From the NCBI GenBank assembly GCA_964456395.1, contig CAYWAU010000001.1:1-62482 (forward strand): a stretch of 62,482 bases of DNA. Reading direction: 5' to 3'. This stretch comes from an uncultured Dehalococcoidaceae bacterium (GTDB lineage Bacteria > Chloroflexota > Dehalococcoidia > Dehalococcoidales > RBG-16-60-22). Both the position numbers and the translations under genes were made by a program. Below the pieces are notes generated by a model. That model saw only the letters and a program-made list of their open reading frames with translations, was not told the DNA's origin and did not search any database. This document shows positions 35,078 to 61,160 of this stretch, piece by piece. Numbering within the stretch: the first letter of the stretch is position 1; each line of letters opens with the position of its first letter.

Positions 35078-35110
35078 CCGTTTTTACGTAGGCGGCTCTA
35101 ACACACGGGG

Positions 35111-35854: not shown

Positions 35855-35940
35855 TTGCCTCCTTTCCCCACAGATATTAATTAATATTTTTCCCGCTGAA
35901 ATAGCGGGCGGTACCGGCGAGCTATCGGCACTCCGGAAAC

Positions 35941-35969: not shown

Positions 35970-36194
35970 CAGAAATGCTGCGCACTGGCAACGCCAAAGA
36001 TAAGATATTTGCCATCCGGAACTGGGCATAGCGGATTTGACAGCACAGAACACCCCGCCTACCGCAGCTCCCTGAAATCAGGTACGCATTACCTCTAATA
36101 AATACGATTATGCTAAAATACAGCTATTAGCAGAGTACGACTATTTAGCAAATGCTGACCGACTGACAAAATATATTTGAAGGGAATAACTACT

Positions 36195-37343: not shown

Positions 37344-37367
37344 TTACTACTTCAGGAGAATATTACT

Positions 37368-38516: not shown

Positions 38517-38556
38517 GTACTGCGAGAGATGTGGAAGCTGTAAATAACCAGCGCTG

Positions 38557-38970: not shown

Positions 38971-38971
38971 C

Positions 38972-41529: not shown

Positions 41530-41723
41530 AACCACCATATTCAGGCTGGAGGTGCAGTACTCAGACAATCTGCGCTGATAACGGGGCTGGTTCGCCTTTA
41601 ATAATTTAATGTTTTAGAATACAGTTTGTCAACAGACTCTACTCATTTCGTAACTTAGCGACAAAGGTGGTAGAATGACTGGGGGCAGGCATAGCCCGCC
41701 ACCACTGAAGGAGGCAAGTTATC

Positions 41724-44490: not shown

Positions 44491-44590
44491 CCTTGTTAAC
44501 CGGTGCGCTTTAATTCAGGGTGGAGTCGCTTCGCTGAAAGGCAGCATAAAGAAGCTGAGAGAGGACCTCAGTGCGATTTGATGTGTCATG

Positions 44591-44605
44591 AACAGGATTG
44601 ACAAC
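44591..44605 (+). promoter_or_regulatory. conserved AACAGGATTGACAAC promoter/operator motif, copy 2 (upstream of TRAP SBP 2)
   Basis: Identical to 43312-43326, and followed by TATATAATAAT. Confidence 0.4.
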
Positions 44606-44798
44606 GTGAGCCCCATTATATAATAATATGGTGCTACAAAAATACAAAGGCTGACCGGCAATCGGTATTACCAGATGAATGGAGGTGAACGGAACAAATG
44701 TAAAAACGGGTGAAGCATCGCGCCTGACAAACAAGGGGAATTTATAAGGCCAGAAGTTAGTATCTCATTCATTGAACTTAATAAAGGAGGTAAGAATA

Positions 44799-45824: not shown

Positions 45825-45925
45825 CCTTACTAGCCAGTACGCTTAAATTTTACGATAGCGTTGCTTCGTTTGAAGGCAACCCGGAAATATCAAGCAGGCA
45901 CAGTTGCTATCAGGAGGCTGCGTAA

Positions 45926-46453
45926 TTGGCCGGCAGTATCAAACAGAAAGTAGACCGCGTAATTGAACTGGCGAGTCACCTCTTTCTGGTGCTCAGCGGG
46001 GTTCTGATAGTGATAATGATGTTTGCCGCAACCTACGGCGTGTTAAGGCGGTACGCGTTCAATAGCCCGGAGCCCTACTCATATGAAATCAGCACCATGT
46101 TTCTATTGTTCTCCTTTGTATTCGCCATATCGGCGGTAGAAAGGCTGGGCCGGCATATCAGGGTTGATTTCGTCAGTGGTCGCCTGCCTGAACGCGTACA
46201 GCATATCATCGTTAATGTTATCGCCCCGATTATGGGACTTTTCTTTGCCTTCATCCTCACCTGGAAGGGCCTTGACGTATCGCTATTCTCGTTAAAAATC
46301 GGCGAAGTTAGTTCGTCATCGTGGCGAGAGCCCCTGTTCCCGATAAAGCTCATGGTGCCCATAGGCTATACCCTGCTTATCCTCGTCCTCTTAACCAGAA
46401 TTTATAAGGGCTTTGCTTTACTGAAAGGCAACACAAAGACGCTGGCAGATTAG
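45926..46453 (+). CDS. dctQ: TRAP transporter small permease (DctQ)
   Basis: 175 aa with TTG start 8 nt after AGGAGG. Four hydrophobic segments. Positioned between the SBP and DctM genes. Confidence 0.75.
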   Translation: MAGSIKQKVDRVIELASHLFLVLSGVLIVIMMFAATYGVLRRYAFNSPEPYSYEISTMFLLFSFVFAISAVERLGRHIRVDFVSGRLPERVQHIIVNVIAPIMGLFFAFILTWKGLDVSLFSLKIGEVSSSSWREPLFPIKLMVPIGYTLLILVLLTRIYKGFALLKGNTKTLAD

Positions 46454-46508
46454 CTCTCACCACGGCTTGTTGCTTTATAAGCTTACTACCTGGCAAATTA
46501 GGAGGGTC

Positions 46509-47810
46509 ATGGATTATACTACGGCGGCTGTAGTATGTGTGGCCGGTATGCTCTTCTTCCTGATGCTGGGAGTGCCTATTGCTTACGCTCTCGGATTTGT
46601 TTCGGTAATTGTCGGACTCATCACTTTCGGAAGTGTTTGTCTCCAAAAAGTCGGCTGGATGACGTTTCACCTGCTGTTCAATTTGAACTGGACCCCGCTG
46701 CCACTGTTTACGTTAATGGCCTGCATCATCGCCGAAACCAGAATAGGCGAAGACCTCTACCGGGCTGCCAGAAACTGGCTGTCCCGCGTCCCCGGAGGGC
46801 TGGTTGTGGCCAGCATTATGGGTGAAGCGGGGATGGCCGCCGCATTGGGTGCCAGCGGCCCCACCATAATCGCCGTGGGCAAAGTGGCGGTACCGGAACT
46901 TGAAAGATACGGCTACAACAGGGCGCTCGGCCTGGGTGCGCTGACCTGCGGGGGCGTCCTGGGCCCATTGATTCCCCCCAGCGCCACCATGATTATCTTC
47001 GCTATTTTGGCGAATGTGCCTCTAGGCCGACTTTTCATAGCGGGAGTTGTACCCGGTATCATCCTGGCCTTAATGCTGTCAATAGTACCTATAGTCCTCT
47101 GCTCACGAAATCCCTCACTCGGAGGTGCCGCCGGCGGCGTCAGCTGGTCAGCGAGGTTCTCTTCGCTCAAAAATGTCTGGCCCATAGTTCTGGTGATGTT
47201 TTGTGTCCTCGGCTCGATTTATCTCGGGGTGGCTACGCCGACTGAAGCCGGAGGAGTCGGCTGCTTTGTCGTACTGGTGGTGGCGGTCTCAACCTTTGGC
47301 CTCAGGCTTAAAGGTCTGTACCGGGCAATGCTGGAAGCGGCGCTGATAAATTCAATGATTCTGATTATCCTGGTCGGGGCTTCGTTCTTTTCTTACGTGG
47401 TGGGAAGTTCCGCCCTGGCGGAGCGTTTATCCATCCTCGTCACATCTTTGGGGGTATCCCCGATTTTTGTGGTCATCAGCATCATGGTAGCTCTCCTGAT
47501 TCTGGGCTGCTTTATAGAGGGGATTACCATCATGATGCTGACCATACCTATCTTTGTCCCTATGGTCCTCGCCCTGGGTTATGACCCGCTGTGGTTCGGG
47601 ATATTGTACGTAACTAATATGGAGATAGCCCTGATAACACCGCCGATGGGCATAAACCTGTTTTTGGTGAGAAACACCTTTAATATCGGAAGCGGTGAGC
47701 TTCTCAGAGGGATACTACCTTTCCTATTTGTCCTAATCCTCTTCCTGGCAGTCATGGTAGCTTTTCCCCAGCTGAGTCTCTGGCTGCCCGGTATGATGAT
47801 AGGACGATAA
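46509..47810 (+). CDS. dctM: TRAP transporter large permease (DctM)
   Basis: About 433 aa from ATG 46509, after AGGAGGG. Polytopic membrane protein with DctM-like repeats. Confidence 0.85.
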   Translation: MDYTTAAVVCVAGMLFFLMLGVPIAYALGFVSVIVGLITFGSVCLQKVGWMTFHLLFNLNWTPLPLFTLMACIIAETRIGEDLYRAARNWLSRVPGGLVVASIMGEAGMAAALGASGPTIIAVGKVAVPELERYGYNRALGLGALTCGGVLGPLIPPSATMIIFAILANVPLGRLFIAGVVPGIILALMLSIVPIVLCSRNPSLGGAAGGVSWSARFSSLKNVWPIVLVMFCVLGSIYLGVATPTEAGGVGCFVVLVVAVSTFGLRLKGLYRAMLEAALINSMILIILVGASFFSYVVGSSALAERLSILVTSLGVSPIFVVISIMVALLILGCFIEGITIMMLTIPIFVPMVLALGYDPLWFGILYVTNMEIALITPPMGINLFLVRNTFNIGSGELLRGILPFLFVLILFLAVMVAFPQLSLWLPGMMIGR

Positions 47811-47860: not shown

Positions 47861-49033
47861 TTATCTTAGTCGCTTATCCAGTGGTGAGGTCTTTTTCTCT
47901 CTTGACGGCAGAGCCACTGTGGCGTGACCGGGCATAACATCCTCTCGCCTCTGGTTGATAGCGTGCAGGTCAATGTCAACGCAGTACTCGCCATCTTCAT
48001 TAACGTATTTCCTGGTGACGTTGCCCTTGAGCCAGACCACATCCGAGTGATAGACGAACCGGTGATATTCAACGCGACTCCTCTTCAACCAGCCATCATC
48101 GCCCATCCAGTTGGTCAGCAGGTGAATTCCCCAGCAGTGTCTTTGTATGCCGACATCGTAAGGCTGGGGAAGCCCCATGGCGTTAGCTGCCTGGATATTG
48201 TAATGGACAGCAAATATTGGCTCCAGAGCGTGTGTATTCGGGTCTCGGAACGACCACGCCGGGTGCCGGCGGTACTGTCGTAATGCCAGGCCATGAGCCC
48301 TTAAACGGGGGATGGGTGCTCCCCCGCCAATTAAGAACGCCACTTCATCTGTCATCCCTATCGGCCCCTTTACCACTGGTTTAAGCTCCTCTCCAACCGC
48401 AACATCTTCCCAGTAGCGAGGTTGGGCACCCCTTATCTCCTCGGCAAGCACTTCTTCTTCAATATTTTTGAGTTCTTCTTCTATCCAGGGGTGGGGGAGT
48501 TCAATCTTGCTGTATTTACCCTTTTCCCTGGCTTTAGCTCTGGAAAAATGCATTACTGACCAGCGGTACTTGGCTACAAGTTCGCCCCGCTGGTTCCAAT
48601 ATTTGTTATCGAAATGGTCAATTACGGTCTCCTCGGCAAACCGGCTTGCTTTTGGCCCTTCGAAGCTGGTAAAAACGCAGTCCGGCGTTATTTTGTCACC
48701 CAGATATATAGGTCTGAGGAACTCTAAATCACAGCCGGAATGGAAACCTCCCAACCCCCTCCAGCCGAACTGCACTTGAGCGAAGCAAGCCCAGATGAAT
48801 GAAGGGGGCGCTATAATGCTGCCATAACGTGTCTTTTTGGCGTATTCCGCATCCGTCCAGAGTGGATTGGGATCGCCTATTCCCTCGGTAAACTTTAGTA
48901 TTGTCATTCTGGTAGCATCTTCGTTGTGTATTGAGTCATCGGTGCGGAGCTTAAGTCCCAGCTTGGCGCGCATGCTGTCCAGCATTTCCTGAGTGATACT
49001 GGCTTTTGGCATCTCGGCTTTCTTTTTAGCCAC
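47861..49033 (-). CDS. double hot-dog MaoC/FAS1-like (R)-specific acyl-CoA hydratase/dehydratase
   Basis: 390 aa. N-terminal MaoC-N-like segment (ILKFTEGIGDPNPLWTD) and a second hot-dog half. The size is that of fused hydratases such as mesaconyl-CoA hydratase. Confidence 0.6.
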   Translation of the reverse strand: MAKKKAEMPKASITQEMLDSMRAKLGLKLRTDDSIHNEDATRMTILKFTEGIGDPNPLWTDAEYAKKTRYGSIIAPPSFIWACFAQVQFGWRGLGGFHSGCDLEFLRPIYLGDKITPDCVFTSFEGPKASRFAEETVIDHFDNKYWNQRGELVAKYRWSVMHFSRAKAREKGKYSKIELPHPWIEEELKNIEEEVLAEEIRGAQPRYWEDVAVGEELKPVVKGPIGMTDEVAFLIGGGAPIPRLRAHGLALRQYRRHPAWSFRDPNTHALEPIFAVHYNIQAANAMGLPQPYDVGIQRHCWGIHLLTNWMGDDGWLKRSRVEYHRFVYHSDVVWLKGNVTRKYVNEDGEYCVDIDLHAINQRREDVMPGHATVALPSREKKTSPLDKRLR

Positions 49034-49065: not shown

Positions 49066-50427
49066 CTAGCCGGTCTGTCCTATATCACCGCCGTACATTT
49101 TTCCTAGCTCGCTGCGGTAATCGGGGTCAAACCAGCCGGCCCCCTGCTCCTCTATCAGGTCGGCACGGCTGGCTCTGCCTGATGGGAAGGTAGGGCTTCG
49201 CCCCAGCACGTCCGCTTGTTCCAGTGCTTCCATCTCTTCCGCTGACATACCCAGTAAAGAGCCAAACACGTATTCATTGTCTTGAGCAAAACGAGGTGCC
49301 CTTTTTTGAACAAAACTTTCCATGCCGCTGAACTTGGCCGACATCTGGCTGGCAATTGGTCTCTTACCAATCCCTTCGCCGTGGTCGATTAACTGAAAGA
49401 AACCGCGTTCAATGAGGTGAGGGTTAAGATTTACTTCTTTCATATTGAGTACGGCTCCCGATGGAACCCCGGCCTCCTGTAGAACTTGCATCACTTCAAT
49501 GTGGTCACGCTGGCAGGTCCACTCCTCAACCAGTCTGTCAAGGTCTGGCTGGTTCTGTCGCCGACTCCGGGCATCGGCAAATCTTTCGTCTCTGGCCCAC
49601 GCCGGGCCGCCAATGGCCTGGCAGAACCGCTGCCATTGCCCGTCATTCTCCACGGCGATGTTCACCCAGCTATCATCACCCTTACAGCGATAGCACCCGT
49701 GTGGTGCTGATGAAACGTGTCGGTTGCCGTCTCGCAGCTTGTCTCGCTTATTCAGAGTATACTCCATGATGATTTCCCCGACATGGCAGGCAACGGCTTC
49801 CCGGCCCGAGACATCCACGTACTGTCCCTTACCGGTCATCATGCGATAGTACAGTGCTATCATCAGGGCCGCGGCGGCATTGGCGCCGGTTACCCAATCC
49901 CCGTAGGCATAGCCTGAGAGCAGAGGCTCCCCGTCGGGGTAGCCGGTGCTATATGTCAGCCCGCTCATTCCTTCCATACCCGGTACGTACATGTAGAAAT
50001 CCCTTAACGGCCCGTAGTGCCCCAGACCACTCATGGATACCATGATTATATCCGGCCTGACCTTTTTCAGCTCTTCGTAACCCAATCCCCAGTTGCCCAT
50101 GACCCTGGGTGAGAAATTCTCGATAACAACATCACTTATCCTGACCAACTGCTTGAATAGCTCTCTGCCCTTCTCAATGCCTAGGTTGAGAGATATACCC
50201 CGTTTCCCGGCGTTCAGGGTGTGGAAAAAGCAACCGCGATTCCATGGCTCTTCTCCGGGAGTATTCTCTGGATAGACATTGGCCCGGGTATAGACGTCGG
50301 CACGCTGGACAGACTCTATCTTGATGACCTCAGCCCCCATATCAGCCAGTATCTTGGTGCTTACCGGCCCGGCGAAGACCATGGTCAGGTCAAGAACTCT
50401 TATTCCGTCTAATAATTTGTATGTCAT
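49066..50427 (-). CDS. family III CoA-transferase (longer, 453-aa form)
   Basis: IRVLDLTMVFAGPVSTKILADMGAEVIKIES, and the APHGCYRCKGDDSWVNIAV internal motif. Confidence 0.85.
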   Translation of the reverse strand: MTYKLLDGIRVLDLTMVFAGPVSTKILADMGAEVIKIESVQRADVYTRANVYPENTPGEEPWNRGCFFHTLNAGKRGISLNLGIEKGRELFKQLVRISDVVIENFSPRVMGNWGLGYEELKKVRPDIIMVSMSGLGHYGPLRDFYMYVPGMEGMSGLTYSTGYPDGEPLLSGYAYGDWVTGANAAAALMIALYYRMMTGKGQYVDVSGREAVACHVGEIIMEYTLNKRDKLRDGNRHVSSAPHGCYRCKGDDSWVNIAVENDGQWQRFCQAIGGPAWARDERFADARSRRQNQPDLDRLVEEWTCQRDHIEVMQVLQEAGVPSGAVLNMKEVNLNPHLIERGFFQLIDHGEGIGKRPIASQMSAKFSGMESFVQKRAPRFAQDNEYVFGSLLGMSAEEMEALEQADVLGRSPTFPSGRASRADLIEEQGAGWFDPDYRSELGKMYGGDIGQTG

Positions 50428-50442
50428 TCCAATTCCTCAAGA

Positions 50443-51648
50443 TTAAACAATTCCTTCTGCCTGCAACTGGGTAAGAGCCTCCCGGCTATAGCCAAGCCGA
50501 CCATATATTTCCTCGTTGTGTTCACCCAGCAGGGGGGCGCGGCACGCCTGCCATGGAGACTCATTTAGCTTGGCTGGTGCCCCGGGATAGGTGACTTCGC
50601 CCATAACCGGATGCTCGGCCCGGGCAAAGAACTCCCTCGCCTGAATCTGTTCGTCCTCCAGCAACTCTCCCGGGCTGAGGACTGGTGTGAAGGCCAGCCG
50701 GACCTGCTGGGCTTTTTTGGTTATCTCCCATTTATCATGCTCCTTGAGCCAGGGAATGATGAGGTCATCGAACTTATCCGGCGCCGCCATACGGGCACGC
50801 GGTTCGGTGAAGAGGGGGTCATCCATCAACTCCGGTTTCTCAATGAGCAAGGGGATATTGGGCGCTCCGCCTATTCCCGGCGTCAGGCTTATCCACCCAT
50901 CTTTACAGGGAACGCTGTAACCAATAGGGTAGCCATGAATGGCAAACGGATTGGTTCTTCTACTCAGCCCGATGTACGGGTATTCGGCAGCGTGCCCCAT
51001 CACCGTACTGGCAACACATCCCATCGCTGCTATATCAATGAGCGTACCACGGTTGGTGCTCTCCCGCTTGATGAGTGCCGCTACGGTAGCTATGAAGCTG
51101 AGCACACCGGTGGCGTACTCAGCCTGAAAACCGGCCTCAGCCACTGGCCGCTCGGTCGGCTTGGTGGCTGGTCGCATGGTGGACATCGCTCCACCCAGAC
51201 CGTATACCGTGAAGCCTGTGGCAGCATAGTCCCGGTAGGGTCCCGTTTGCCCGAAATATGATATTGAGGTCATTATCAGGTCAGGATTAATCTCCCTTAA
51301 AACTTCACAGGATAAACCGAGTTCGGACATTGTGCCCGGTTTGCAGTTTTCCGCCAGGACATCAGCTTCTTTAACCAGCTCTTTAAATATCCTGATTCCT
51401 TTTTCACTCTCAATGTCCAGGGTAACGCTTTTCTTGCTGGTATTGAGGTAAAAAAAGGTCCCGCTTTTTTCGTTGTCGGGTTCGTCGCCGGCGAAGGGCT
51501 CCATGCCTCTCGTGGCGTCTCCCTCTCGCGGCCGCTCAACCTTGATTACCTCGGCACCAAAATCAGCCAGCAGCTTGGTACAATAGGGCCCGGCAATCCC
51601 AGAGGTGCAGTCGACAACTCTTAAGCCGGTAAAAGCTTGTTCTGGCAT
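50443..51648 (-). CDS. family III CoA-transferase
   Basis: 401 aa. LRVVDCTSGIAGPYCTKLLADFGAEVIKVERP. Confidence 0.85.
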   Translation of the reverse strand: MPEQAFTGLRVVDCTSGIAGPYCTKLLADFGAEVIKVERPREGDATRGMEPFAGDEPDNEKSGTFFYLNTSKKSVTLDIESEKGIRIFKELVKEADVLAENCKPGTMSELGLSCEVLREINPDLIMTSISYFGQTGPYRDYAATGFTVYGLGGAMSTMRPATKPTERPVAEAGFQAEYATGVLSFIATVAALIKRESTNRGTLIDIAAMGCVASTVMGHAAEYPYIGLSRRTNPFAIHGYPIGYSVPCKDGWISLTPGIGGAPNIPLLIEKPELMDDPLFTEPRARMAAPDKFDDLIIPWLKEHDKWEITKKAQQVRLAFTPVLSPGELLEDEQIQAREFFARAEHPVMGEVTYPGAPAKLNESPWQACRAPLLGEHNEEIYGRLGYSREALTQLQAEGIV

Positions 51649-51954: not shown

Positions 51955-52716
51955 ATGAGACTGGCTAACAAGGTAGCTATAATTACGGGGGCAGGTTCCG
52001 GAATAGGGAGAGCTTCGGCAACACTGTTCGCCAAGGAGGGTGCCAAGGTAGTGGTTGCTGACATAAATGACGCCGCCGGAGAGGAGACGGTAAAAGCTAT
52101 CAAGTCAGGCGGCGGCGAGGCTATTTTTGTCCATACTGATGTCTCCAAAGCTTCCGATGACGAAAACCTCGTCAAGGTAACCAGGGACAAATTCGGCAAA
52201 ATCGACATACTCTTTAACAATGCCGGTGTACCGCAGAGAAGCATGTCGATTGCGAATCTGGACGAATCGTTGTGGGACCGCATTTATGCGGTTAATGTTA
52301 AGAGTATCTTTCTGACCGCGAAATATGCCGCGCCCGTAATGAAAGAGGCGCGGGGTGGCGTTATCATCAATCTCGCCTCCATCATCGGAGTTAGACCCCG
52401 GCCGGGTAACCTCGCTTACGCCAGTTCTAAAGCTGCGGCTATTCACCTGACCAAGATATTAGCCCTGGAATTCGCCCCGGATAATATCCGGGTTAATTGC
52501 ATTAACCCGGTAGCGGCGGATACACCCATGCTGGAACAATTCTTCCCCGAGGGTGCCGACCCGGATGAACTTAAGAGGTTGACGATAGGCACGATTCCTC
52601 TGGGACGCCTGGGTAAGCCGGAGGACATCGCTTATGCGGCTTTATACCTGGCTTCTGATGAATCCACATTTGTCACCGGCTCATCCATAGATGTTGACGG
52701 AGGACGGGGAATCTAG
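51955..52716 (+). CDS. short-chain dehydrogenase/reductase (classical SDR, FabG-like)
   Basis: 253 aa. TGAGSGIG, NNAG, and the YASSKAA catalytic YxxxK motif. Confidence 0.9.
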   Translation: MRLANKVAIITGAGSGIGRASATLFAKEGAKVVVADINDAAGEETVKAIKSGGGEAIFVHTDVSKASDDENLVKVTRDKFGKIDILFNNAGVPQRSMSIANLDESLWDRIYAVNVKSIFLTAKYAAPVMKEARGGVIINLASIIGVRPRPGNLAYASSKAAAIHLTKILALEFAPDNIRVNCINPVAADTPMLEQFFPEGADPDELKRLTIGTIPLGRLGKPEDIAYAALYLASDESTFVTGSSIDVDGGRGI

Positions 52717-52804: not shown

Positions 52805-54190
52805 ATGAAAGACCCCAAAAGCCCTACCCACGTAATAGCCGATTTTGTCGTCAATACCGCCTATGAGGACCTGCCTGATGCTGCCGTTCAATATGCCAAG
52901 ATGAGCATCGTTGATGGCATAGGGACATGCATAGCCGGCTCGGAAAGTCCCGCCGGCAGGATAATCACCGATTACGCCAGAGAAGGAGATAGCCGGCCTG
53001 AAGCCACGGTTATCTCCAAAGGTTTTAAAACAGGCGCTCCAGAAGCAGCCCTGGCCAACGGCACCATGATGCACGCTCTGGACTATGATGATTGTGCTGA
53101 AAACTTCCTGGGTCACCCGACCACGGTCATTCTGCCGGCTGTTTTGGCGTTGGGAGAGAGTACCGGGATATCGGGTAAAGAGGCTTTATTATCATATATC
53201 CTGGGCTACGAGGTCGGCAGCAAAATTGGTTCCGGGATGGGCTCGGCTCATTATGACGCGGGCTGGCACCCCACGTCTACTATCGGTGCCCTGGCGGCAG
53301 TGATAGCGGCGACCAGGATATTGAGGCTTGATGTTCCACAAACCAGGACGGCAATTGGTATTGCTGCCTCTTTAGCCAGCGGATTACGACAAAATTTTGG
53401 AACGATGACCAAACCTCTACACGCCGGGAACGCGGCTCGTAACGGTGTGTTCGCGGCATTGCTGGCCCAAAAGGGATTCACCTCTGACCAGGGAATATTA
53501 GAAAACCCTCTGGGTTTTGCCAGGGTATTTAGCGGGACCGTAGAAGCCGATTTAAAGAAGATGATTAGCAATTTGGGGGCTCCATTTGAGATAGTCTCCG
53601 ATGCGCCTATAATAAAACTGTACCCTTCCTGCCGCGCCACAGCCGGGTGTATTGATGCTATTCTTCATCTCGTCAGACGGCATAATATTGGTGCTGACGA
53701 CGTAGGTGAAGTGGAATGTAGAACAAGCCCGCACACTCCAACGGTATTAATTCACTCACGCCCACAAACCGCATTGGAAGGCAAATTTAGCCTTCAATAC
53801 TGCATGGCGATAGCTATTGTTGATAGAGAAGTGGGATTGGGACAATTCACGGACGACAAGGTGCAAAACGCCCAAATTCAGAAGTTAATCACCAAAGTGA
53901 GGTACACTCATCCGCCAGAGATTGGCTCGGCTTCGGCCGACTCAATGCGAGGGAGAGTTGAAGTGGCGGTAAGGCTCAAGAACGGCACCGAGTTCTCCAA
54001 ACCGGTTGAAGCGGCCAAGGGCGACCCCAGGAATCCGCTATCACAGGAGGAGATGGAATCCAAGTTCCTGGACTGTGCCAGGCTTGTGTTCTCACCACAG
54101 GATGCCAGGCGGTGCCTGGATAATATTTTGCAGCTGGAACATATCAGAGATATCTCCGAATTAATGAAACTGCTCTACAATCCGGCATGA
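52805..54190 (+). CDS. MmgE/PrpD-family protein (second copy)
   Basis: 461 aa. DGIGTCIAGSE, HALDYDD, LYPSCRAT. Confidence 0.8.
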   Translation: MKDPKSPTHVIADFVVNTAYEDLPDAAVQYAKMSIVDGIGTCIAGSESPAGRIITDYAREGDSRPEATVISKGFKTGAPEAALANGTMMHALDYDDCAENFLGHPTTVILPAVLALGESTGISGKEALLSYILGYEVGSKIGSGMGSAHYDAGWHPTSTIGALAAVIAATRILRLDVPQTRTAIGIAASLASGLRQNFGTMTKPLHAGNAARNGVFAALLAQKGFTSDQGILENPLGFARVFSGTVEADLKKMISNLGAPFEIVSDAPIIKLYPSCRATAGCIDAILHLVRRHNIGADDVGEVECRTSPHTPTVLIHSRPQTALEGKFSLQYCMAIAIVDREVGLGQFTDDKVQNAQIQKLITKVRYTHPPEIGSASADSMRGRVEVAVRLKNGTEFSKPVEAAKGDPRNPLSQEEMESKFLDCARLVFSPQDARRCLDNILQLEHIRDISELMKLLYNPA

Positions 54191-54224: not shown

Positions 54225-55151
54225 TTACCCTGCTTCCTCCTCAATCTCAGACTCGGGAATGCGAACCTCAATACCTCCGGCACGCTCCTCCTGGAGCAAC
54301 ATGGCAATACGGGAGTCCTTATCACCCCAGCCACGGTTCATGGCTGCCATCAGCTCCTGCAGGGTCAGGTTGGCCACAGCCATGGGAACATCATACTCAC
54401 GCCCCAGCGAGGTTGCCAGTGCCACGTCTTTTAACGCCAGATGCAACGCAAATTGGGGAGGCTCGAAATTTCCCCGGAAAACGATTTCGGGCAATATCCT
54501 GTGGAACATAAGACCCTGCCCCATACCGCCATCCCTCAGGATGCGCCATAACGCTTTGGGCTCCACACCTGCCTTAACTCCCAGCGTCAGGCACTCGGCG
54601 ACGATGGTCTGCAAGCCATAATTTATGCAATTGTGCATGAGCTTACAAATGCTGCCATTGCCGACTTTCCCGGTATATGTCATCTTATCGCCAATGGCTT
54701 TCAGTACAGGCTGGCATCGCTGAAAGACATCCTCATCTCCACCCACCATCAGCGTCAGTTTGCCCGTCCGTGCCCCCGTTGGCCTGCCGCTCACCGGCAC
54801 GTCCATTACATCGGCACCCCTTTCCTTAAATTTGTCATAAATACGGCGCGCCAGTGTCGGCGAACTGCTGGATAAGTCAATGTACACCCCGCCGGGACGT
54901 ATGCCTTCAATAATGCCGCCTTCACCCAGGGCAACTGCCTCCACTTCCTGAGGACCGGGTAAGGAGGTGAATATTATATCGCTAGCCTCAGCAACCGCTT
55001 TCGGCGAGTCAGCCCAGCAGGCGCCGGCGTCGACCAGGGTCTTGGCTGCCTCCCGCCTCAGGTCGTAAACAGTAAGCGTATAGCCGGCCTTGAGGATGTT
55101 GCTTGCCACCCCGCTTCCCATGCTACCGAGCCCGATGAAACCGATATCCAC
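54225..55151 (-). CDS. beta-hydroxyacid dehydrogenase (3-hydroxyisobutyrate / tartronate-semialdehyde reductase family)
   Basis: 308 aa. IGFIGLGSMGSGVA NAD fold, DVPVSG, and the GNGSICKLMHN catalytic Lys motif. Confidence 0.85.
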   Translation of the reverse strand: MDIGFIGLGSMGSGVASNILKAGYTLTVYDLRREAAKTLVDAGACWADSPKAVAEASDIIFTSLPGPQEVEAVALGEGGIIEGIRPGGVYIDLSSSSPTLARRIYDKFKERGADVMDVPVSGRPTGARTGKLTLMVGGDEDVFQRCQPVLKAIGDKMTYTGKVGNGSICKLMHNCINYGLQTIVAECLTLGVKAGVEPKALWRILRDGGMGQGLMFHRILPEIVFRGNFEPPQFALHLALKDVALATSLGREYDVPMAVANLTLQELMAAMNRGWGDKDSRIAMLLQEERAGGIEVRIPESEIEEEAG

Positions 55152-55234: not shown

Positions 55235-56452
55235 TTACAGACCAAAGGCGCCGGAAATGAGCAGCTGGTCAAATTCGGTGTCGGAAATGCCCAGCAGTTC
55301 CTTGCAAACGTACTCCGTATGCTCACCCAGACAGGGAGATGGCATTCGCGGCTGGGCGGGGGTCTTTGATAACCTGGAGGGTTGACCCATGTGCGGAAAA
55401 TCGCCTATCTCTTTATGTTTTAGCACCCAGAAAAGATTTGCTTCCCGAAGTTGAGGGTCCTGATAGATATCCTCCCCCTTCTTTACCATACCAGCCGCCA
55501 CACCGGCTGCCTGCATTAGCTCCATTGTCTCCTGAGCGGAATGATTAATCGTCCATTCACCAATTAATATGTCTAATTCCTCTTCGTTTTTCTTGCGGTT
55601 AAAAAAAGTGGCGAACCTGGTATCTTCAGTCCAGGACGGGTTACCTATGACGTTACAGAAATTCTCCCAGTCCTCATCAGAGAACACCGCAATAGCGCAC
55701 CAGGAATCGTTACCCCGGCATGGGTAGGCATTATGAGGCACCGCATACGGATGCTGATTGCCGTTCCTCGTTGATTCCTCTCCGTTAGCTTCACACTCCA
55801 GAAGATATGGTCCCAGGAACTGTAAGGAGACTTCGCTCTGCGACAGGTCTATCATTTGCCCTTTACCGGTTTGGCGGCGGTATTCCAGTGCGGCAACCAG
55901 AGTGGCGATAGCAAAATGAGGGACAAAATAATCCGGATAGGCAAACATAAAAGAAAGGGGGTCCCGGTCAGCCCATCCCGTGAAATTTACAAAACCAGCC
56001 AGGGCATTTAATTGCAGGCCCAGCCCACCAAGACGGCTGAAAGGTCCTGTCTGACCTTGATTTGAAGTCCGGAGCATAATGGCATCCGGCCTGATTTTCT
56101 TCAGGTCTTCATACCCCAGACCCCAGTTCTCCATAACGCCCGGATTGAAATTCTCGGCTGTAATGTCCGCCCATGAGACCAGTTTCTTAGCTATTTCTCT
56201 CCCCTGCGGGTGTCCCAGGTCAAGACTCATGGAGTACTTGTTGGCATTCCAGTATGTGTAGAAACCCGAGCGGTTCACCCCGGGCTTATTATCCCTGTAA
56301 GGCATGGTAATCCTGAGACCTCCGGGCCTTTGTGCTGATTCGATACGAACCACGGTCGCCCCATAATCGGCCAGCGTCTTGGTAGTTAAAGGCCCGGCTA
56401 TCCACCAGGTGAAATCGGCAACCTTTATTCCTTCAAAGGGCGCTGTTGTCAT
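55235..56452 (-). CDS. family III CoA-transferase, type B (paralog of 33860-35077)
   Basis: 405 aa. PFEGIKVADF...GATVVRIES, and VPHNAYPCRGNDSWCAIAV. Confidence 0.85.
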   Translation of the reverse strand: MTTAPFEGIKVADFTWWIAGPLTTKTLADYGATVVRIESAQRPGGLRITMPYRDNKPGVNRSGFYTYWNANKYSMSLDLGHPQGREIAKKLVSWADITAENFNPGVMENWGLGYEDLKKIRPDAIMLRTSNQGQTGPFSRLGGLGLQLNALAGFVNFTGWADRDPLSFMFAYPDYFVPHFAIATLVAALEYRRQTGKGQMIDLSQSEVSLQFLGPYLLECEANGEESTRNGNQHPYAVPHNAYPCRGNDSWCAIAVFSDEDWENFCNVIGNPSWTEDTRFATFFNRKKNEEELDILIGEWTINHSAQETMELMQAAGVAAGMVKKGEDIYQDPQLREANLFWVLKHKEIGDFPHMGQPSRLSKTPAQPRMPSPCLGEHTEYVCKELLGISDTEFDQLLISGAFGL

Positions 56453-56461: not shown

Positions 56462-57700
56462 TCAGACAACCCCGGCTTGCCTGAGCCGCATCATTTCCTC
56501 GTCAGAAATGCCCAGTTGCCGGTAAATCTCCTGATTGTGCTCACCAATAAGCGGTGGTTTACACGGCGTCCTGGAAGCCTGCTCCGACATTCTGAAGAAG
56601 GTTCCCGGGTAGGTCAGCGTCTCATTCAATTCGGGATGTGCCACCTGTATCCAGAAATCCCTTGATTGGAGCTGGGGGTCTTTCATTATATCTTTCGGAG
56701 AATATACCGGGAATATCTTGATGTCCCTTTTGAGTCCCTCCTGGTAAAGCTGAAGCTTGGTATACCTTAAAAAGAGCTGCTCGGCATATGATTCCAGCCG
56801 ATTCTGCATCTCCTGCGTGGCTACGGCTAAATCATAGCTCTCCCAATCAAATTCTTTAAGGAAGTCGTCGGCTATTCCTTCTTCGCCAATCCATCTCGCC
56901 AGCTGGCAGTTGCCCATGCTCACGCCGAGTCTGCCCCCGAAAATGACATAGGCAACAAAGCCATCCCGGCAACGCCAGATAATGCGCTGATTGTTTTTAC
57001 CGAAGCGACTGCTCAGCACGGAGCCCTGTCGTGATAGGTTAATCCTGTCCAGTTCCCAGTGAGGGATGGTATTGGTTATCGCCCAGGTGATACTTGCCTG
57101 GATAGAGACATCAACATGCTGCCCCTCTCCCGTGTTTTGGCGGTGATGATAGGCTATCATGGTAGCTGACGCAGCACTGGAGCCCCCGAGTAACCAGGAC
57201 TGAGGAAAGCTGATACGCAGCGGGGGGCGGTCTTTATAGCCCGTTATATACAACAGCCCCCCCATCGCTAACAGGGTGATATCAGAGGCTTTATAGTCCT
57301 TGTAAGGACCCCGCTGCCCGAAAGGTGTGATAGAGGTCAGGATAATAGAGGGGTTAACCGAATTGAGTGTCGAGTAACCTAACCCCAACCCCTCCATATA
57401 GCCTACCGGGAACGACTCAATTACGAAATCAGCCCCCTTAACCAACCTTTTAAAGATTTCCTTACCGTCCGCTGTCTCAATATCCAGGGTGATACCCTTC
57501 TTATTGAGATTATGAGCAAACCAGTAGAGACTTCTTTCCGGATGGGGAATGCTGTGATAAAAGGGCGGGATATTGCGGGAATGGTCACCCCCGGGCTTTT
57601 CCACCTTGATGACCTCGGCACCAAGGTCAGCCAGGATTCTACCGCACAAAAAACCTTCTTCACCCGTTAAGTCCAGGACCCGGCCGGAGAGAAGCGTCAC
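56462..57700 (-). CDS. family III CoA-transferase, type A (paralog of 32588-33835)
   Basis: 412 aa with GTG start after GGAGG. VLDLTGEEGFLCGRILADLGAEVIKVEKPGGD. Confidence 0.85.
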   Translation of the reverse strand: MTLLSGRVLDLTGEEGFLCGRILADLGAEVIKVEKPGGDHSRNIPPFYHSIPHPERSLYWFAHNLNKKGITLDIETADGKEIFKRLVKGADFVIESFPVGYMEGLGLGYSTLNSVNPSIILTSITPFGQRGPYKDYKASDITLLAMGGLLYITGYKDRPPLRISFPQSWLLGGSSAASATMIAYHHRQNTGEGQHVDVSIQASITWAITNTIPHWELDRINLSRQGSVLSSRFGKNNQRIIWRCRDGFVAYVIFGGRLGVSMGNCQLARWIGEEGIADDFLKEFDWESYDLAVATQEMQNRLESYAEQLFLRYTKLQLYQEGLKRDIKIFPVYSPKDIMKDPQLQSRDFWIQVAHPELNETLTYPGTFFRMSEQASRTPCKPPLIGEHNQEIYRQLGISDEEMMRLRQAGVV

Positions 57701-57776: not shown

Positions 57777-59171
57777 TCATACCTCTTTCAAATAGCTTTT
57801 CATCAGAGCTAAGGCGGCTTTTGGCTCCGTCTGAGCCAGCAAACCGGCGGCATAGAGGATGTACTCCTCATCTACATAGAACCGGGGGTTCCTGGGCCTG
57901 AGAATATGGCGACTGGTCTCCTGAAATAACACCCTTTCCAGAATACCCCTGGGGTCCCGGGAGAAGGCTATGGGCCCACCCGTTCCGACCACGTGCCGTA
58001 CCTCGGTCAGGTCTTTTCCGCGCTGGACAGCCATCTCCCCCATAGGACCATAGACAATCTCCACCCTGCCCGCGTGCCGCTCCACGGCTACTTCCACCGC
58101 CACCGAAGCCAGCATCATGTCACCGGTGAATTGCTGTTCCGTTTGAGGAATCTGCCCGACCGCCGAAATTTCCTGGATAACACCTTCGTAACTTTCATCC
58201 GGCAGGAGTCCCCTTAGCTGAAGTTGCTCCAGCAGCGTGCCTATGTTGAGTCTTACCCCCAGGTCTCCCTCCACGGTCCTTTTTACGTAGGGCTCAGGCA
58301 GACCCCTCACCATCACATCTCCAGAAGCTGGATTGCCCCTGGCGATTGAGTGTACGTCGGTAGTGGCGCCACCGATATCCACCACGATGACATCGCCCAG
58401 CCCTTTTTGCTCCTGATAGCCTTCGGCAAGAAGCCTGGCTGCCGCCAGTACGGCCGACGGGGTGGGCATGATGATATCTTTTACTATTGCCCTGGCTTTG
58501 GCTACGCCCTTGGCTTCTATAATGTTCTTGATGAAAATGTCTCTTATTTCCCGGTTACAATGTTCTGTCTCAAGCCTGCCTATTTCCGGCATTACATTTT
58601 TGGTGAACCGGACATTGGCACTATGTGTATTGAAGATTGCCTCAATTTCATCACGCGCCGTCTTATTTCCCGCCACCAGCAGGTGAGCCCGCTCAAGGTC
58701 CAACTTGGAAAGCATACGCGCGTTGTGAATGATAACCCTTTTATCACCGCCGTCAGTTCCCCCAGCCAGCAGGATAATATCGGGGGAGATTTCCCCTATC
58801 TCACTGATTTCCTGTTCGGTAAGCTCGTACGAATAGCAACCTACAATCTTGGCGCCGGCTCCTAATGCCGCCCGGGTAGCGGCTTCGACGGTAAGCTCGG
58901 GTACAAAACCGATGGAGACTACTCGCAGACCGCCAGCCGCACTACTGCAGGCTAATGCCTCCCACTCGTCCTCATGACTTGTGTTTACCCCGGCATCAAG
59001 CTCCTCAAGGGCTTCTTTGAGACCGATAGTAATATCTTCTTCAACTGTAGATGGAGCCTGGGACCTTGAAATTATCCTTCCTCTATCTAAATCTACGGCG
59101 ACAACCTTGGTAAACGTACTTCCAAAATCGATTAGAAATCTGATGCTGCCCATTAACACAACCTTTAACAA
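57777..59171 (-). CDS. glmL: GlmL/MutL-like protein (glutamate mutase accessory/reactivase-type, ASKHA-like)
   Basis: 464 aa. FLIDFGSTFTKV N-terminus and VVDIGGATTDVHS. Lies adjacent to the glmS/glmE-like genes. Start is TTG 59171 or ATG 59153. Confidence 0.7.
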   Translation of the reverse strand: MLKVVLMGSIRFLIDFGSTFTKVVAVDLDRGRIISRSQAPSTVEEDITIGLKEALEELDAGVNTSHEDEWEALACSSAAGGLRVVSIGFVPELTVEAATRAALGAGAKIVGCYSYELTEQEISEIGEISPDIILLAGGTDGGDKRVIIHNARMLSKLDLERAHLLVAGNKTARDEIEAIFNTHSANVRFTKNVMPEIGRLETEHCNREIRDIFIKNIIEAKGVAKARAIVKDIIMPTPSAVLAAARLLAEGYQEQKGLGDVIVVDIGGATTDVHSIARGNPASGDVMVRGLPEPYVKRTVEGDLGVRLNIGTLLEQLQLRGLLPDESYEGVIQEISAVGQIPQTEQQFTGDMMLASVAVEVAVERHAGRVEIVYGPMGEMAVQRGKDLTEVRHVVGTGGPIAFSRDPRGILERVLFQETSRHILRPRNPRFYVDEEYILYAAGLLAQTEPKAALALMKSYLKEV

Positions 59172-59219: not shown

Positions 59220-59645
59220 CTAAACCTTACCCTTTGCCTTCAAATCATCTTCCAGGTCAGCTATAACTGCTGCCATATCTACTTCGGGGGGGTAAACTCT
59301 ATCGAACCCCATAGCCTCAAATTTCTGTTTGTCATCCTCAAAGTTATGCCGGCCCACCGCCAGATTACCGCCGAGGTAAAGGAGCACATCCCCGAGGCCA
59401 GATTCTGTGCATTTATCTTTGAATCCTGCTAAATCGAACTCCGCCATGCCGTAGAGCGAACTTACAAAAATGGCATCAGCCGCTGTTTCTTGAGCTACTT
59501 TGATGAATTCCTCTGCCGGCGTCAGTCCTCCGAGTTCGACAACCTTGTATCCCTGTTCCATCAAAAAACGAGATAGAAGCTTGATGCCGATAACATGGGA
59601 ATCCTGCCCTATCGTTCCTGTAACTATAGTTGCTTCTTTTGCCAT
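59220..59645 (-). CDS. glmS: B12-binding small subunit of a glutamate-mutase-type enzyme (GlmS/MutS-like)
   Basis: 141 aa. DSHVIG (DxHxxG base-off/His-on motif), SSLYG, and LYLGGN. Collinear with clostridial GlmS. Confidence 0.85.
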   Translation of the reverse strand: MAKEATIVTGTIGQDSHVIGIKLLSRFLMEQGYKVVELGGLTPAEEFIKVAQETAADAIFVSSLYGMAEFDLAGFKDKCTESGLGDVLLYLGGNLAVGRHNFEDDKQKFEAMGFDRVYPPEVDMAAVIADLEDDLKAKGKV

Positions 59646-59690: not shown

Positions 59691-61160
59691 TCAGGAGGTC
59701 GATTCCCCTTTTATTTTACCCTTACTGAATGCCCAGAAATCCTGAATGACCACGCTAAGGTCCATCTTCCGCCCCTCCGCCTTTTCCCGTTCCGCCACCT
59801 TTTCACGGTGAAATTCTTTTACCTCTTCCGGAATAGGCAGGTTGCCGAAATCAAGGTAGCGGCAGGCTCCTTTATTATCCCTGATGCCGAGTACCTTTGA
59901 TTTAAGATTCACATTGCTGGCGATTGGGGAATCAATTGCTCCGGTCTGCACTCCCTTCTCATAGCCAACAGCCACATCGCCGTCCCCAAGCTCCAGAATC
60001 CTGTCCATTATTGCCCTGACTTCGAGCTCGGTGATTCTTTCCTCAATTCTTGCCTCTTCCTGGTCAATGGTAAAATTCTGAGCCCGGACGACATCAAAAA
60101 TAAATTTAGCTGCGCGGTAACTTACCGCGTGGGCTTCCTTTGCCGGGATGCCGGCCGCTTCGTCAATTGTCCTGACATACACGCCTTCTCCTTCGGCCAA
60201 CGCCCCGACCATCGCACTATAACCGAGAAAACCGAAAGACATACCCATATCCTGCGGATGAGGGAATAACGGCACCTGGTCCAGAAAGAGACCGGGAACG
60301 ATAACATCTTTGTAGCCGAATTTGTCGAGATACTCCCTGGTCAGTTTTCGTAATGTCCGTGCCCAGGCAATGTCCTGCAACATATGACCGTACATCGAAA
60401 TACGGGGTATGACGCTTTTCACACCCTGCTCGGCGGCCAGCATAGCAACGACGATAACGCCGGCTATGTCGACACTCATGGGAAACTGGAGGTTGGAATT
60501 TATCCCGTCAATATCGGTGGCTATGGTGACTCCCCTGTCAGCATAATAGCCTATTAATCGCTGTATATATTGATATTCTTCAATACACTCGGCTGCGGTG
60601 GGCTTCTTTTCATACCAGCCGAAGGTTATTATAGGGTCAACGAGAGCCGCCGTTACACCTGATGCGAAAGCAATTTCGGCCATCAGCTTGATACCGCCAA
60701 TATTGGTCAGCCTCTGGTTTAATGCCGCCTCGGTATTCTCAACGACCTTTCGTGTATTCTTCACGCCATGGATAACGGTGGGATACCCGTTTAACTTCGG
60801 CTGACCAGTTTTATTGCTCTCCTCCAACCCTCGCTGTGCCTTATCATATTGTCCCAGACGACAGTAGCTGTCCGGCGTTAACGGGATAACGGGCAAACCC
60901 GCTTCCACCAGCGCCTTGTTAAGTTCAATCTCCTGCTCCAGGATTGGAGTTCCCGCCCTTGGGAAAACAACGGTCTTGCCTTCCTGATGCAGTTTCTGTA
61001 TCACTTTGGTGAAGTTCTTGTGTTCAGGCAGACTCTTTTGATATTCCACCGCCTCCTCAAAGTCGACCTCTTTGCCGGTTGCCCATCTGGAAAGTACCTC
61101 TTTTCTTTCCCTGAGAAACCTTTCCTCGTCCCATTTCTTGTTTCTAACTGTTATCTCCAT
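59691..61160 (-). CDS. large (epsilon) subunit of a glutamate-mutase-family B12 mutase (GlmE-like, divergent active site)
   Basis: 489 aa, collinear with clostridial GlmE (NKKW..E.F...R.EVL..W.TGKEVD..EAV.Y; PRAG; LNG.P...GVK; AAEQGVK; RYL.FGN.P). The Glu171 region reads AALVDP instead of SNEGGG. Confidence 0.75.
   Translation of the reverse strand: MEITVRNKKWDEERFLRERKEVLSRWATGKEVDFEEAVEYQKSLPEHKNFTKVIQKLHQEGKTVVFPRAGTPILEQEIELNKALVEAGLPVIPLTPDSYCRLGQYDKAQRGLEESNKTGQPKLNGYPTVIHGVKNTRKVVENTEAALNQRLTNIGGIKLMAEIAFASGVTAALVDPIITFGWYEKKPTAAECIEEYQYIQRLIGYYADRGVTIATDIDGINSNLQFPMSVDIAGVIVVAMLAAEQGVKSVIPRISMYGHMLQDIAWARTLRKLTREYLDKFGYKDVIVPGLFLDQVPLFPHPQDMGMSFGFLGYSAMVGALAEGEGVYVRTIDEAAGIPAKEAHAVSYRAAKFIFDVVRAQNFTIDQEEARIEERITELEVRAIMDRILELGDGDVAVGYEKGVQTGAIDSPIASNVNLKSKVLGIRDNKGACRYLDFGNLPIPEEVKEFHREKVAEREKAEGRKMDLSVVIQDFWAFSKGKIKGESTS

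Follow-up and report, generated by a model that had tools for sequence, protein, structure and literature searches.

Which reaction is catalyzed by a B12-dependent mutase that keeps the arginines with which glutamate mutase holds its substrate and carries a leucine where glutamate mutase has the glutamate that contacts the amino group? The question is raised by a contig of 62,482 nucleotides from an uncultured Dehalococcoidaceae bacterium (GenBank contig CAYWAU010000001.1; hereafter the window, meaning the whole stretch of DNA that was analyzed), which encodes a homologue of GlmE, the catalytic subunit of glutamate mutase. To our knowledge, only two B12 carbon-skeleton mutases acting on free acids have been characterized, glutamate mutase and 2-methyleneglutarate mutase, both of which are textbook models of radical enzymology. 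We propose that the window enzyme is probably an adenosylcobalamin (AdoCbl)-dependent carbon-skeleton mutase that interconverts a 2-substituted glutarate other than L-glutamate and a 3-methyl-substituted succinate, feeding a coenzyme A (CoA)-dependent route.

A three-gene mutase with a diverged substrate-binding subunit

The GlmS-like and GlmL-like genes lie directly downstream of the mutase gene, in the order E-S-L and with gaps of 45 and 48 bp:

59691..61160, minus strand: GlmE-like catalytic (epsilon) subunit of an AdoCbl-dependent mutase, 489 amino acids (aa) (PF06368, TIGR01503, 1CB7_B/6H9E_B, AlphaFold2 model)
59220..59645, minus strand: GlmS-like B12-binding (sigma) subunit, 141 aa, with the DxHxxG motif as DSHVIG at residues 15-20 (NF002612, 185 bits against a cut-off of 110)
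57777..59171, minus strand: GlmL/MutL accessory protein, a reactivating chaperone (NF040745, 573.6 bits against a cut-off of 475)

The open reading frame (ORF) at 59691-61160 is a full-length GlmE homologue. It is intact, with an ATG start and a ribosome-binding site (AAAGGGG) upstream, and the Pfam family Met_asp_mut_E (PF06368) spans its whole length (421.7 bits). When all PDB sequences were searched with phmmer, the sole matches were to the epsilon chain of Clostridium cochlearium glutamate mutase (1CB7/1CCW/1I9C_B and 6H9E_B) at E values of about 1e-103, the best being 9e-104 to 6H9E_B; the identity to this GlmE (1CB7_B/6H9E_B) was 39%. An AlphaFold2 model of the window protein (pLDDT 91.2) superimposed on GlmE with a TM-score of 0.93-0.94 and a root-mean-square deviation of about 2 Å.

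The GlmS and GlmL proteins scored far above their NCBI equivalog cut-offs, whereas the GlmE-like protein was borderline, reaching 391.7 bits on the methylaspartate-mutase model TIGR01503 against a cut-off of 390.1, a margin of 1.6 bits. In the related loci described below, the identity to the C. cochlearium proteins was 52-58% for GlmS and 47% for GlmL, also above that of GlmE. Since GlmE is the least identical of the three and the only one with a borderline score, the substrate-binding subunit is the diverged one. Judged by homology, the three genes form a complete AdoCbl mutase (E, S, and L), in which the fold and radical machinery of glutamate mutase are retained and the pocket for the migrating group appears to have been rebuilt.

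The arginine claw is complete and Glu171 is replaced

In glutamate mutase, the glycyl fragment that migrates is bound by Arg66, Arg149, and, at the amine, Glu171; Arg100 and Tyr177 bind the acrylate fragment, and Tyr181 is in contact with the methylene radical carbon (PMC10947579). We therefore aligned the window protein with the C. cochlearium PDB chains (phmmer/HMMER). The alignment turned out to be ungapped between residues 150 and 300, and, as no gap falls between the anchors AEI..A.G and Y.K, which flank the critical stretch with equal spacing on both sides, the residue register is fixed. MAFFT alignments of 120 and of 127 sequences gave the same register. Residues 161-185 of the window protein, AEIAFASGVTAALVDPIITFGWYEK, align over the 25-residue GlmE segment that contains Glu171, Tyr177, and Tyr181. 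The residues concerned are listed below; "position" in this text refers to GlmE numbering, and "clade" to the group of relatives delimited in the next section.

60957..60959, minus strand: Arg68, equivalent to GlmE Arg66, upper arginine claw, in FPRAG (alignments; invariant in the clade)
60858..60860, minus strand: Arg101, equivalent to GlmE Arg100, lower claw, acrylate-side carboxylate, in SYCR (alignments; role from PMC10947579)
60711..60713, minus strand: Arg150, equivalent to GlmE Arg149, upper claw, in NQRL (alignments)
60642..60644, minus strand: Leu173, at GlmE Glu171, the amino-group ligand (alignments; model strand 171-174)
60636..60638, minus strand: Asp175, at GlmE Gly173, a clade-specific acid just past the strand (alignments)
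60624..60626, minus strand: Thr179, at GlmE Tyr177, which forms the acrylate hydrogen bond; Thr, Asp, Asn, Ser, Glu, or Leu among the subgroups (alignments; role from PMC10947579)
60612..60614, minus strand: Tyr183, equivalent to GlmE Tyr181, the contact of the methylene radical carbon, conserved (alignments)
60507..60515, minus strand: Asp216-Ile217-Asp218, at GlmE Glu214-x-Phe216, end of the next barrel strand, clade-specific (alignment, model)
60129..60173, minus strand: Arg330 (GlmE Lys326), Glu334 (GlmE Glu330, conserved), and His344 (GlmE Asn340) (alignment)

The arginine claw is complete, and of the two GlmE tyrosines Tyr181 is kept and Tyr177 replaced. At position 171, where all of the 24 canonical representatives have Glu, the window protein has Leu173 with no gap nearby. 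The holders of both carboxylates and of the radical center are thus present, and the amine ligand and one acrylate ligand are absent, a pattern that would be expected for the same 1,2-shift on a dicarboxylate with another substituent on the migrating carbon. A gap-shifted alignment with an acid at position 171 was considered and rejected, since the anchors are equally spaced and three methods agree.

The preliminary description of this locus, made by eye, had called the ORF collinear with clostridial GlmE, had placed the claw arginines in FPRAG, SYCR, and NQRL, and had read Glu171 as Leu, Tyr177 as Thr, and Tyr181 as conserved. These assignments held throughout. The Pfam match is full-length and the central alignment ungapped, HMMER and MAFFT both identified the claw as Arg68, Arg101, and Arg150, the reading of the three positions was the same by HMMER, MAFFT, and the model, and the segment 168-183 contains no Glu that a gap adjustment could bring to position 171.

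In the model, Leu173 lies within barrel strand 171-174, with Asp175 directly after it, and positions 171/173 and 214/216 form the C-terminal ends of two adjacent strands, which is where the active sites of TIM barrels are located. Asp175 and Asp218 stand one layer above Leu173 and Asp216. Glu184, beside Tyr183, is invariant in the clade and variable among the canonical enzymes. As far as strand register tells their orientation, Asp175 and Asp218 may face the substrate or else pair with Arg330 and His344; if the Asp cluster does face the substrate, a hydroxyl, a differently oriented amine (as in D-glutamate), or another cationic group would be possible.

These acids bear on a rival explanation, namely, that the enzyme is still an L-glutamate mutase in which the role of Glu171 has moved to Asp175, Asp218, or Glu184 and whose 3-methylaspartate is handled by nonorthologous enzymes. 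In the model, Asp175 is at i+2 from Leu173 at the same barrel strand end and should point to the same side; moreover, the claw, Tyr181, and Glu330 are intact, the GlmS and GlmL partners are typical, and the TIGR01503 cut-off is narrowly passed. Set against this is the loss of the acrylate ligand Tyr177 as well, and the evidence from the clade and from the related loci, given in the next two sections, leads us to consider the explanation very unlikely.

Loss of Glu171 is fixed across a separate clade

A large protein collection contained at least 1270 relatives of the window protein, of which we analyzed the best 120, at 58-94% identity. Nearly all of these were metagenomic; the organisms named for relatives were Chloroflexota, Desulfobacterales/Thermodesulfobacteriota, Syntrophorhabdus, Syntrophales, and Bathyarchaeia. 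The sources of the clade are thus named as anaerobic Chloroflexota, Desulfobacterota, and Bathyarchaeia. Of the best 120, 113 have Leu at position 171 and 113 have Asp at position 173, and the three claw arginines are invariant. On this conservation, the Leu at position 171 is not a chance substitution and the loss of Glu171 is fixed across the clade.

Comparison with the 24 canonical representatives showed that Arg66, Arg100, Arg149, Tyr181, Glu330, and many structural glycines and prolines are fixed in both groups, whereas nine canonical-invariant positions are fixed differently in the clade: V69T, Q75E, P145A, E171L, G173D, E214D, F216D, K326R, and N340H. Beyond these, Tyr177 to Thr, His150 to Leu, and Gly151 to Thr in the window protein are fixed or near-fixed differences from GlmE. 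An exhaustive search of 50%-identity representatives reduced the clade to a single representative, the nearest protein outside it being one sister (49% identity; a fused E-S protein from Oscillospiraceae) and all others lying at or below 41%. In neighbor-joining trees of 127 full-length family members, the clade, which carries the same substitutions as the window protein, was monophyletic in 30 of 30 resamplings, and the canonical Glu171 enzymes formed a different cluster. Natural E-S fusions of 640-644 aa also occur inside the clade (P0038, P0047, P0055, and P0069; L039 3487-5415), as well as in the sister, P0121.

At least five pocket signatures, set by positions 150, 151, 171-173, 177, and 216, could be told apart within the clade. 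The subgroups, with their signatures and gene neighbors, are as follows:

Subgroup A (includes the window protein), LT-LVD-T: PrpD, BbsEF-like transferases, MaoC, AMP-ligases, TRAP transporter, hydantoinases
Subgroup B, MT-LQD-D/N/S: ICL-like lyase, AMP-ligases, PrpD, adenylosuccinate-lyase-like gene
Subgroup C, FA-LAD-T, with Lys326: short-chain dehydrogenases/reductases (SDRs), PrpD2, HIBADH
Subgroup D, G-GKS-E-H216: CoA-transferases on both sides
Subgroup E, L/T-S-A/P-x-S-L/S-H216: CoA-transferases on both sides

The claw, Asp214, Tyr181, Glu330, and His340 are constant through the subgroups. Positions 173 and 216 covary, subgroups D and E having Ser173 and His216 in place of the Asp pair. 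Such variation of the pocket around a constant claw looks like a radiation of specificity around one mechanism.

Two explanations can be weighed against these data. That nine canonical-invariant positions have changed together speaks against a retained L-glutamate mutase, as does the fact that in subgroups D and E, with Gly, Ala, or Pro at position 171 and Ser at 173, even the substitute acid is absent. The loss of a key catalytic residue could also mean that the protein is a relic of glutamate mutase, either without catalytic activity or with a regulatory role. This we regard as hardly credible. The E, S, and L genes are all intact and lie co-linearly; in hundreds of sequences (56-94% identity) that come from several phyla, the residues on the cofactor side and those binding the carboxylates do not vary; the synteny with catabolic genes has been preserved; and the fold, predicted with confidence, is native-like.

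Related loci lack the glutamate fermentation genes

We then analyzed 88 loci with clade members, found mostly by an alignment-based metagenome scan, which together with the window comprise 792 kb; a single-protein scan of genome contigs gave at least three loci, from metagenome-assembled genomes of Chloroflexota. The locus ORFs were annotated against labeled neighbors and Pfam. One C. cochlearium genome and one Tissierellaceae contig served as canonical controls, and their proteins were used as tblastn queries (E ≤ 1e-3). Both controls show the gene order glmS-glmL-glmE-methylaspartase-mesaconase-citramalate lyase.

Neither methylaspartase (methylaspartate ammonia-lyase) nor the citramalate-lyase beta subunit had a tblastn match in the window and the 88 loci. 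Among the clade loci, there was one marginal fragment of CitF, the citramalate-lyase alpha subunit (L088, E = 5e-4), and mesaconase was matched only in L009, a locus without a full-length clade gene. By the same search, GlmS was matched in 68 loci and GlmL in 37. To characterize the neighborhoods, we counted the 112 genes lying at most three positions from the mutase in the nonredundant loci:

Family III CoA-transferases: 34 of 112
AMP-forming ligases: 8 of 112
MmgE/PrpD proteins: 8 of 112
Old-yellow-enzyme-type reductases: 8 of 112
Family I CoA-transferases: 7 of 112
Hydantoinase A subunits: 5 of 112

No recurrent nitrogen-removing enzyme was found in the neighborhoods. The absence of methylaspartate ammonia-lyase, which is adjacent to the mutase in both canonical controls, together with that of an aminotransferase or other recurrent nitrogen-removing enzyme, is a further argument against L-glutamate as the substrate.

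The compact loci consist of PrpD, E, S, L, CoA-transferases, and MaoC and have no acyl-CoA dehydrogenase. Some subgroup-B loci contain a tricarboxylate transporter and a pairing of PrpD with a PrpB-like protein, and a molybdenum hydroxylase together with an ICL-family lyase (petal-death-protein/dimethylmalate-lyase-like) was found in L001, L025, and L043 only. On the same 99- to 124-kb contigs of L001, L002, and L043, two clade GlmE paralogs, one with the signature MT-LQD-S and the other with MT-LQD-D, have a single GlmS and a single GlmL between them, and the pair adjoins a xanthine-dehydrogenase-type molybdenum hydroxylase and a petal-death-protein/PrpB-like lyase. In subgroup-B loci, GlmL is followed by a protein of about 300-314 aa without a Pfam match (L039 6856-7755, L040 11190-12116, L052 8800-9744, and L056 3250-4194), which could be a missing pathway enzyme. 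In L013/L015 and L065, one contig carries convergent genes for a subgroup-A mutase and a GlmE of subgroup C. Between them lie hydantoinase A/B, an old-yellow-enzyme-type reductase, two SDRs, and an SMP-30/gluconolactonase-like protein, a gene content that hints at lactam or lactone ring opening upstream of the mutase.

Genes adjoining the mutase in the window

In the window, the E, S, and L genes form a same-strand run with two CoA-transferases and a HIBADH-type dehydrogenase, and MmgE/PrpD and SDR genes lie divergently beside the run. The genes nearest to the mutase on this side are as follows:

56462..57700, minus strand: family III CoA-transferase subunit, closest to benzylsuccinate CoA-transferase chain A (9FN0_A, E = 2e-63; next match 1e-38)
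55235..56452, minus strand: family III CoA-transferase subunit, closest to benzylsuccinate CoA-transferase chain B (9FN0_B, E = 4e-82; next match 1e-51)
54225..55151, minus strand: beta-hydroxyacid dehydrogenase of the HIBADH family, last in the same-strand run (Pfam; PDB)
52805..54190, plus strand: MmgE/PrpD-family protein PrpD1, recurs in related loci (Pfam, both MmgE/PrpD domains; 2HP0, E = 7e-67)
51955..52716, plus strand: SDR
49066..51648, minus strand: second adjacent pair of family III CoA-transferases
47861..49033, minus strand: MaoC-type double hot-dog (R)-hydratase, recurs in related loci
43441..47810, plus strand: TRAP transporter (two DctP, DctQ, DctM)
41724..43187, plus strand: soluble fumarate-reductase/TcuA-like flavoprotein
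40156..41568, minus strand: second MmgE/PrpD protein

Each gene of the adjacent transferase pair matches one different chain of BbsEF as its reciprocal best, one to one, and these matches indicate a heteromeric succinyl-CoA:2-substituted-succinate transferase. The closest solved relative of PrpD1 is iminodisuccinate epimerase (2HP0), and the protein lies near the IRG1/CAD group and not near 2-methylcitrate dehydratase; it reaches no NCBIfam equivalog (39 bits against 950). The best PDB matches of the HIBADH-family protein were tartronate semialdehyde reductase (1VPD) and then 2-(hydroxymethyl)glutarate dehydrogenase of Eubacterium barkeri (3CKY). In NCBIfam and PDB searches, the MaoC, TRAP-binding, PrpD, HIBADH, and ICL-like proteins were all below equivalog level or matched nondiscriminatingly, giving no substrate-level assignment.

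This context bears on another explanation, in which the substrate is a different dicarboxylate carrying an amino or cationic group (for instance, D-glutamate, an N-substituted or beta-amino glutarate, or a ring-opened lactam product), the amine being held by the Asp175/Asp216/Asp218 cluster. There is a net gain of acids at the strand ends beside position 171; the PrpD partner has its closest relative in iminodisuccinate epimerase, which belongs to the metabolism of amino-polycarboxylates; hydantoinase/oxoprolinase A and B genes are among the mutase neighbors (the 5 of 112 counted above); and several subgroup-B loci have a gene of the adenylosuccinate-lyase/aspartase superfamily. The window locus and most subgroup-A loci, however, have no such lyase, aminotransferase, or amino-acid dehydrogenase, the most constant partners are benzylsuccinate-type CoA-transferases, whose known substrates are nonamino succinates, and the Leu at position 171 is hydrophobic. 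We consider this explanation rather unlikely.

Predicted reaction and candidate substrates

The probable reaction, as stated at the outset, is the rearrangement of a 2-substituted glutarate other than L-glutamate. As in glutamate mutase, a 5'-deoxyadenosyl radical would abstract a hydrogen, and the carboxylate-bearing C2 fragment would shift between C3 and C4, according to HOOC-C(X)-CH2-CH2-COOH <-> HOOC-C(X)-CH(CH3)-COOH, X standing for anything but the L-amino group. The methyl-branched succinate would be taken as the free acid by the MmgE/PrpD protein, acting as an epimerase, isomerase, or dehydratase on the succinate backbone, would then be activated by the BbsEF-like heteromeric succinyl-CoA:substituted-succinate CoA-transferase, and its CoA ester would be hydrated by the MaoC enzyme. 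Because a rearrangement of the GlmES type yields a 2-substituted 3-methylsuccinate, these partners fit a mutase that makes or consumes a branched succinate.

Several groups X were considered. The substituent may tentatively be =CH2 (2-methyleneglutarate <-> 3-methylitaconate), for which speak the hydrophobic Leu, chemical precedent, the compact, redox-neutral loci, the molybdenum hydroxylase and dimethylmalate-lyase-like gene in some subgroup-B loci, and the E. barkeri enzyme as second-best solved relative of the HIBADH protein. A hydroxyl (2-hydroxyglutarate <-> 3-methylmalate) is a doubtful but conceivable candidate, with which the compact loci are equally compatible and which would give the new Asp residues something to bind; this route would resemble the methylaspartate pathway with a PrpD-type dehydratase for methylaspartase, or else involve an ICL-type cleavage to glyoxylate and propionate. 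Hydrogen or an alkyl group (glutarate or 2-methylglutarate <-> methylsuccinate or dimethylsuccinate) is unlikely. Within this pair, glutarate <-> methylsuccinate fits the PrpD precedent best, was for that reason considered as the front-runner, and was down-ranked, since the compact loci lack the acyl-CoA dehydrogenase that it would need and an unsubstituted carboxymethyl radical is a poor migrating group. An oxo group or a tertiary center seems improbable; its example, homocitrate <-> 2-methylcitrate, would explain why some subgroup-B loci pair PrpD with a PrpB-like protein and have a tricarboxylate transporter, and is the most speculative of all.

Several points weigh against a nonamino substrate or against the scheme as drawn. 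The window protein still lies above the NCBI methylaspartate-mutase equivalog cut-off, if only by the 1.6 bits; the activity is predicted, for every clade member, from homology and context; and the loci have no conserved C-C lyase that would act on the hydrated CoA ester, so that the pathway as drawn is incomplete. Some subgroup-A loci adjoin genes for hydantoinase/oxoprolinase A and B, which can yield amino acids. Finally, the pocket has acquired Asp175 and Asp218, still has an acid at Asp216 (a shortened Glu214), and has an invariant Glu184; acidic and polar as it is, it would accommodate an ammonium or hydroxyl group more readily than a methylene or hydrogen.

The two functional claims of the preliminary description fared differently in this light. 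That the protein is probably not a glutamate mutase is well supported, now also by the separate clade, the borderline TIGR01503 score, and the absence of methylaspartase from the clade loci, and falls short of proof. That the substrate has no 2-amino group is plausible, but this had been drawn from one residue, and the clade gains Asp175 and Asp218 in a pocket that is acidic.

As to the clade as a whole, the chances seem about even that it is a hitherto unrecognized radiation of GlmES-type mutases, with at least five pocket variants and an altered amine-binding site behind a constant claw, turning nonamino C5/C6 di- and tricarboxylates (2-methyleneglutarate, 2-hydroxyglutarate, glutarate, and homocitrate being the candidates) into methyl-branched succinates and forming, with MmgE/PrpD proteins and BbsEF-like transferases, a new anaerobic dicarboxylate route. 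A search of the published literature, of incomplete coverage, found no characterized GlmE-type enzyme of another specificity, and a search for the clade in proteogenomic studies gave nothing relevant.

Comparison with known systems

With glutamate mutase (GlmES/MutES, EC 5.4.99.1; C. cochlearium and C. tetanomorphum; 1CCW, 1CB7, 1I9C, 6H9E), the window system shares the fold, a separate B12-binding sigma subunit with DxHxxG, the GlmL chaperone, Arg66/Arg100/Arg149, Tyr181, and Glu330, on which grounds we expect it to rearrange a dicarboxylate by the same radical 1,2-shift. It differs in gene order, E-S-L as against the canonical S-L-E, and in its neighbors, which in the clade are CoA-transferases, PrpD, and MaoC instead of methylaspartase, mesaconase, and citramalate lyase.

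The only other AdoCbl mutase on a free C5 dicarboxylate known to us is 2-methyleneglutarate mutase (EC 5.4.99.4), the Mgm enzyme of nicotinate fermentation in E. barkeri, whose substrate is glutamate with =CH2 replacing the amino group. Such a group would fit the Leu at position 171, a likeness drawn from the description of the substrate. Two features of the context could be taken as Mgm-like, the molybdenum hydroxylase and dimethylmalate-lyase-like ICL-family gene of some related loci and the 3CKY match of the window HIBADH protein. Unlike the nicotinate-fermentation cluster, however, the window has no enamidase, PrpF-type methylitaconate isomerase, or aconitase-type dimethylmaleate hydratase, and the downstream steps at its locus would be CoA-dependent, unlike those of the Mgm route. 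No NCBIfam model named for 2-methyleneglutarate mutase matched the window proteins.

In the haloarchaeal methylaspartate cycle, the genes are those of glutamate mutase, methylaspartase, succinyl-CoA:mesaconate CoA-transferase, and mesaconyl-CoA hydratase (PMC5592240). Common to both systems is the clustering of a GlmES-type mutase with a family III CoA-transferase and a MaoC-type double hot-dog hydratase. The clade loci differ in lacking methylaspartase and in having an MmgE/PrpD protein as a recurrent partner, and the window in having a heteromeric transferase of the BbsEF type and a mutase without Glu171.

An MmgE/PrpD protein has been shown to be an (S)-(R)-methylsuccinate isomerase; its substrate is the free acid, and a stereoselective family III CoA-transferase and then a MaoC hydratase act after it, and a succinate backbone is common to every known MmgE/PrpD substrate (PMC12290011). 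That cluster, whose enzymes belong to the same three families and act on branched C5 succinates, has no B12 mutase, and the window PrpD1 lies below every NCBIfam equivalog, nearest to iminodisuccinate epimerase. No citramalyl-CoA lyase was found in the window and related loci. As for BbsEF (9FN0), the two adjacent window transferases match its different chains far above other solved transferases; the window has no benzylsuccinate synthase, and the transferase is likened to BbsEF by sequence.

Other genes in the window

Just upstream of the mutase gene lies an ORF of 226 aa (61577-62257, minus strand) without a Pfam or NCBIfam match. Farther away, a module at 30936-40132 resembles benzylsuccinate beta-oxidation; its genes are those of an AMP-ligase, two adjacent family III CoA-transferases (the third such pair), an enoyl-CoA hydratase, two acyl-CoA dehydrogenases, and a thiolase of the SCP-x type that matches BbsB weakly. 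At 26295-30439 (minus strand), an IlvD/EDD-type dehydratase, a LarA-like protein (nickel-pincer hydroxyacid racemase family), and a UxaA/GarD-type dehydratase possibly form another hydroxy-acid module. The region 17021-26280 encodes an old-yellow-enzyme/2,4-dienoyl-CoA-reductase-like flavoprotein beside an electron transfer flavoprotein (ETF) alpha subunit, a FixC/ETF-QO-like protein, and ETF beta; around this set lie two radical SAM/SPASM genes and one for a GT2 glycosyltransferase. At 9502-12172, a GlcD-like FAD-linked oxidase overlaps a CCG/4Fe-4S (GlcF-like) protein, which is the architecture of a D-2-hydroxyacid dehydrogenase.

Implications for the family and its organisms

To view the clade within its family, we took 106 other full-length 50%-identity representatives from among the best 150 matches (P0121-P0269), a sample biased toward relatives of the query. 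Glu171 is kept in only 26 of the 106 and all three claw arginines in 48; a claw without Glu171 occurs in 24, mostly with Val, Leu, Ile, or Ala at that position. Wherever the sources name these GlmE-like representatives, the name is methylaspartate mutase, and among clade members NCBI gives this name to some and calls others hypothetical protein. This suggests that the one characterized activity covers a minority of the family's diversity and that over-annotation is systematic, the name being given also to many other GlmE-like subfamilies in which Glu171, or even the arginine claw, is missing. Metabolic reconstructions that deduce glutamate fermentation or a methylaspartate cycle from the name are likely wrong for these organisms.

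Being large, cleanly delimited, and phylogenetically broad, and having conserved partner genes that differ from the canonical ones, the clade is a candidate for a third free-acid mutase activity and for a new anaerobic dicarboxylate pathway in uncultured lineages that are abundant in sediments. If the proposal is true, it would add, to our general knowledge for the first time since glutamate mutase and 2-methyleneglutarate mutase, a carbon-skeleton mutase activity on free acids, and a route of anaerobic dicarboxylate breakdown would be widespread in sediment Chloroflexota, Desulfobacterota, and Bathyarchaeia.

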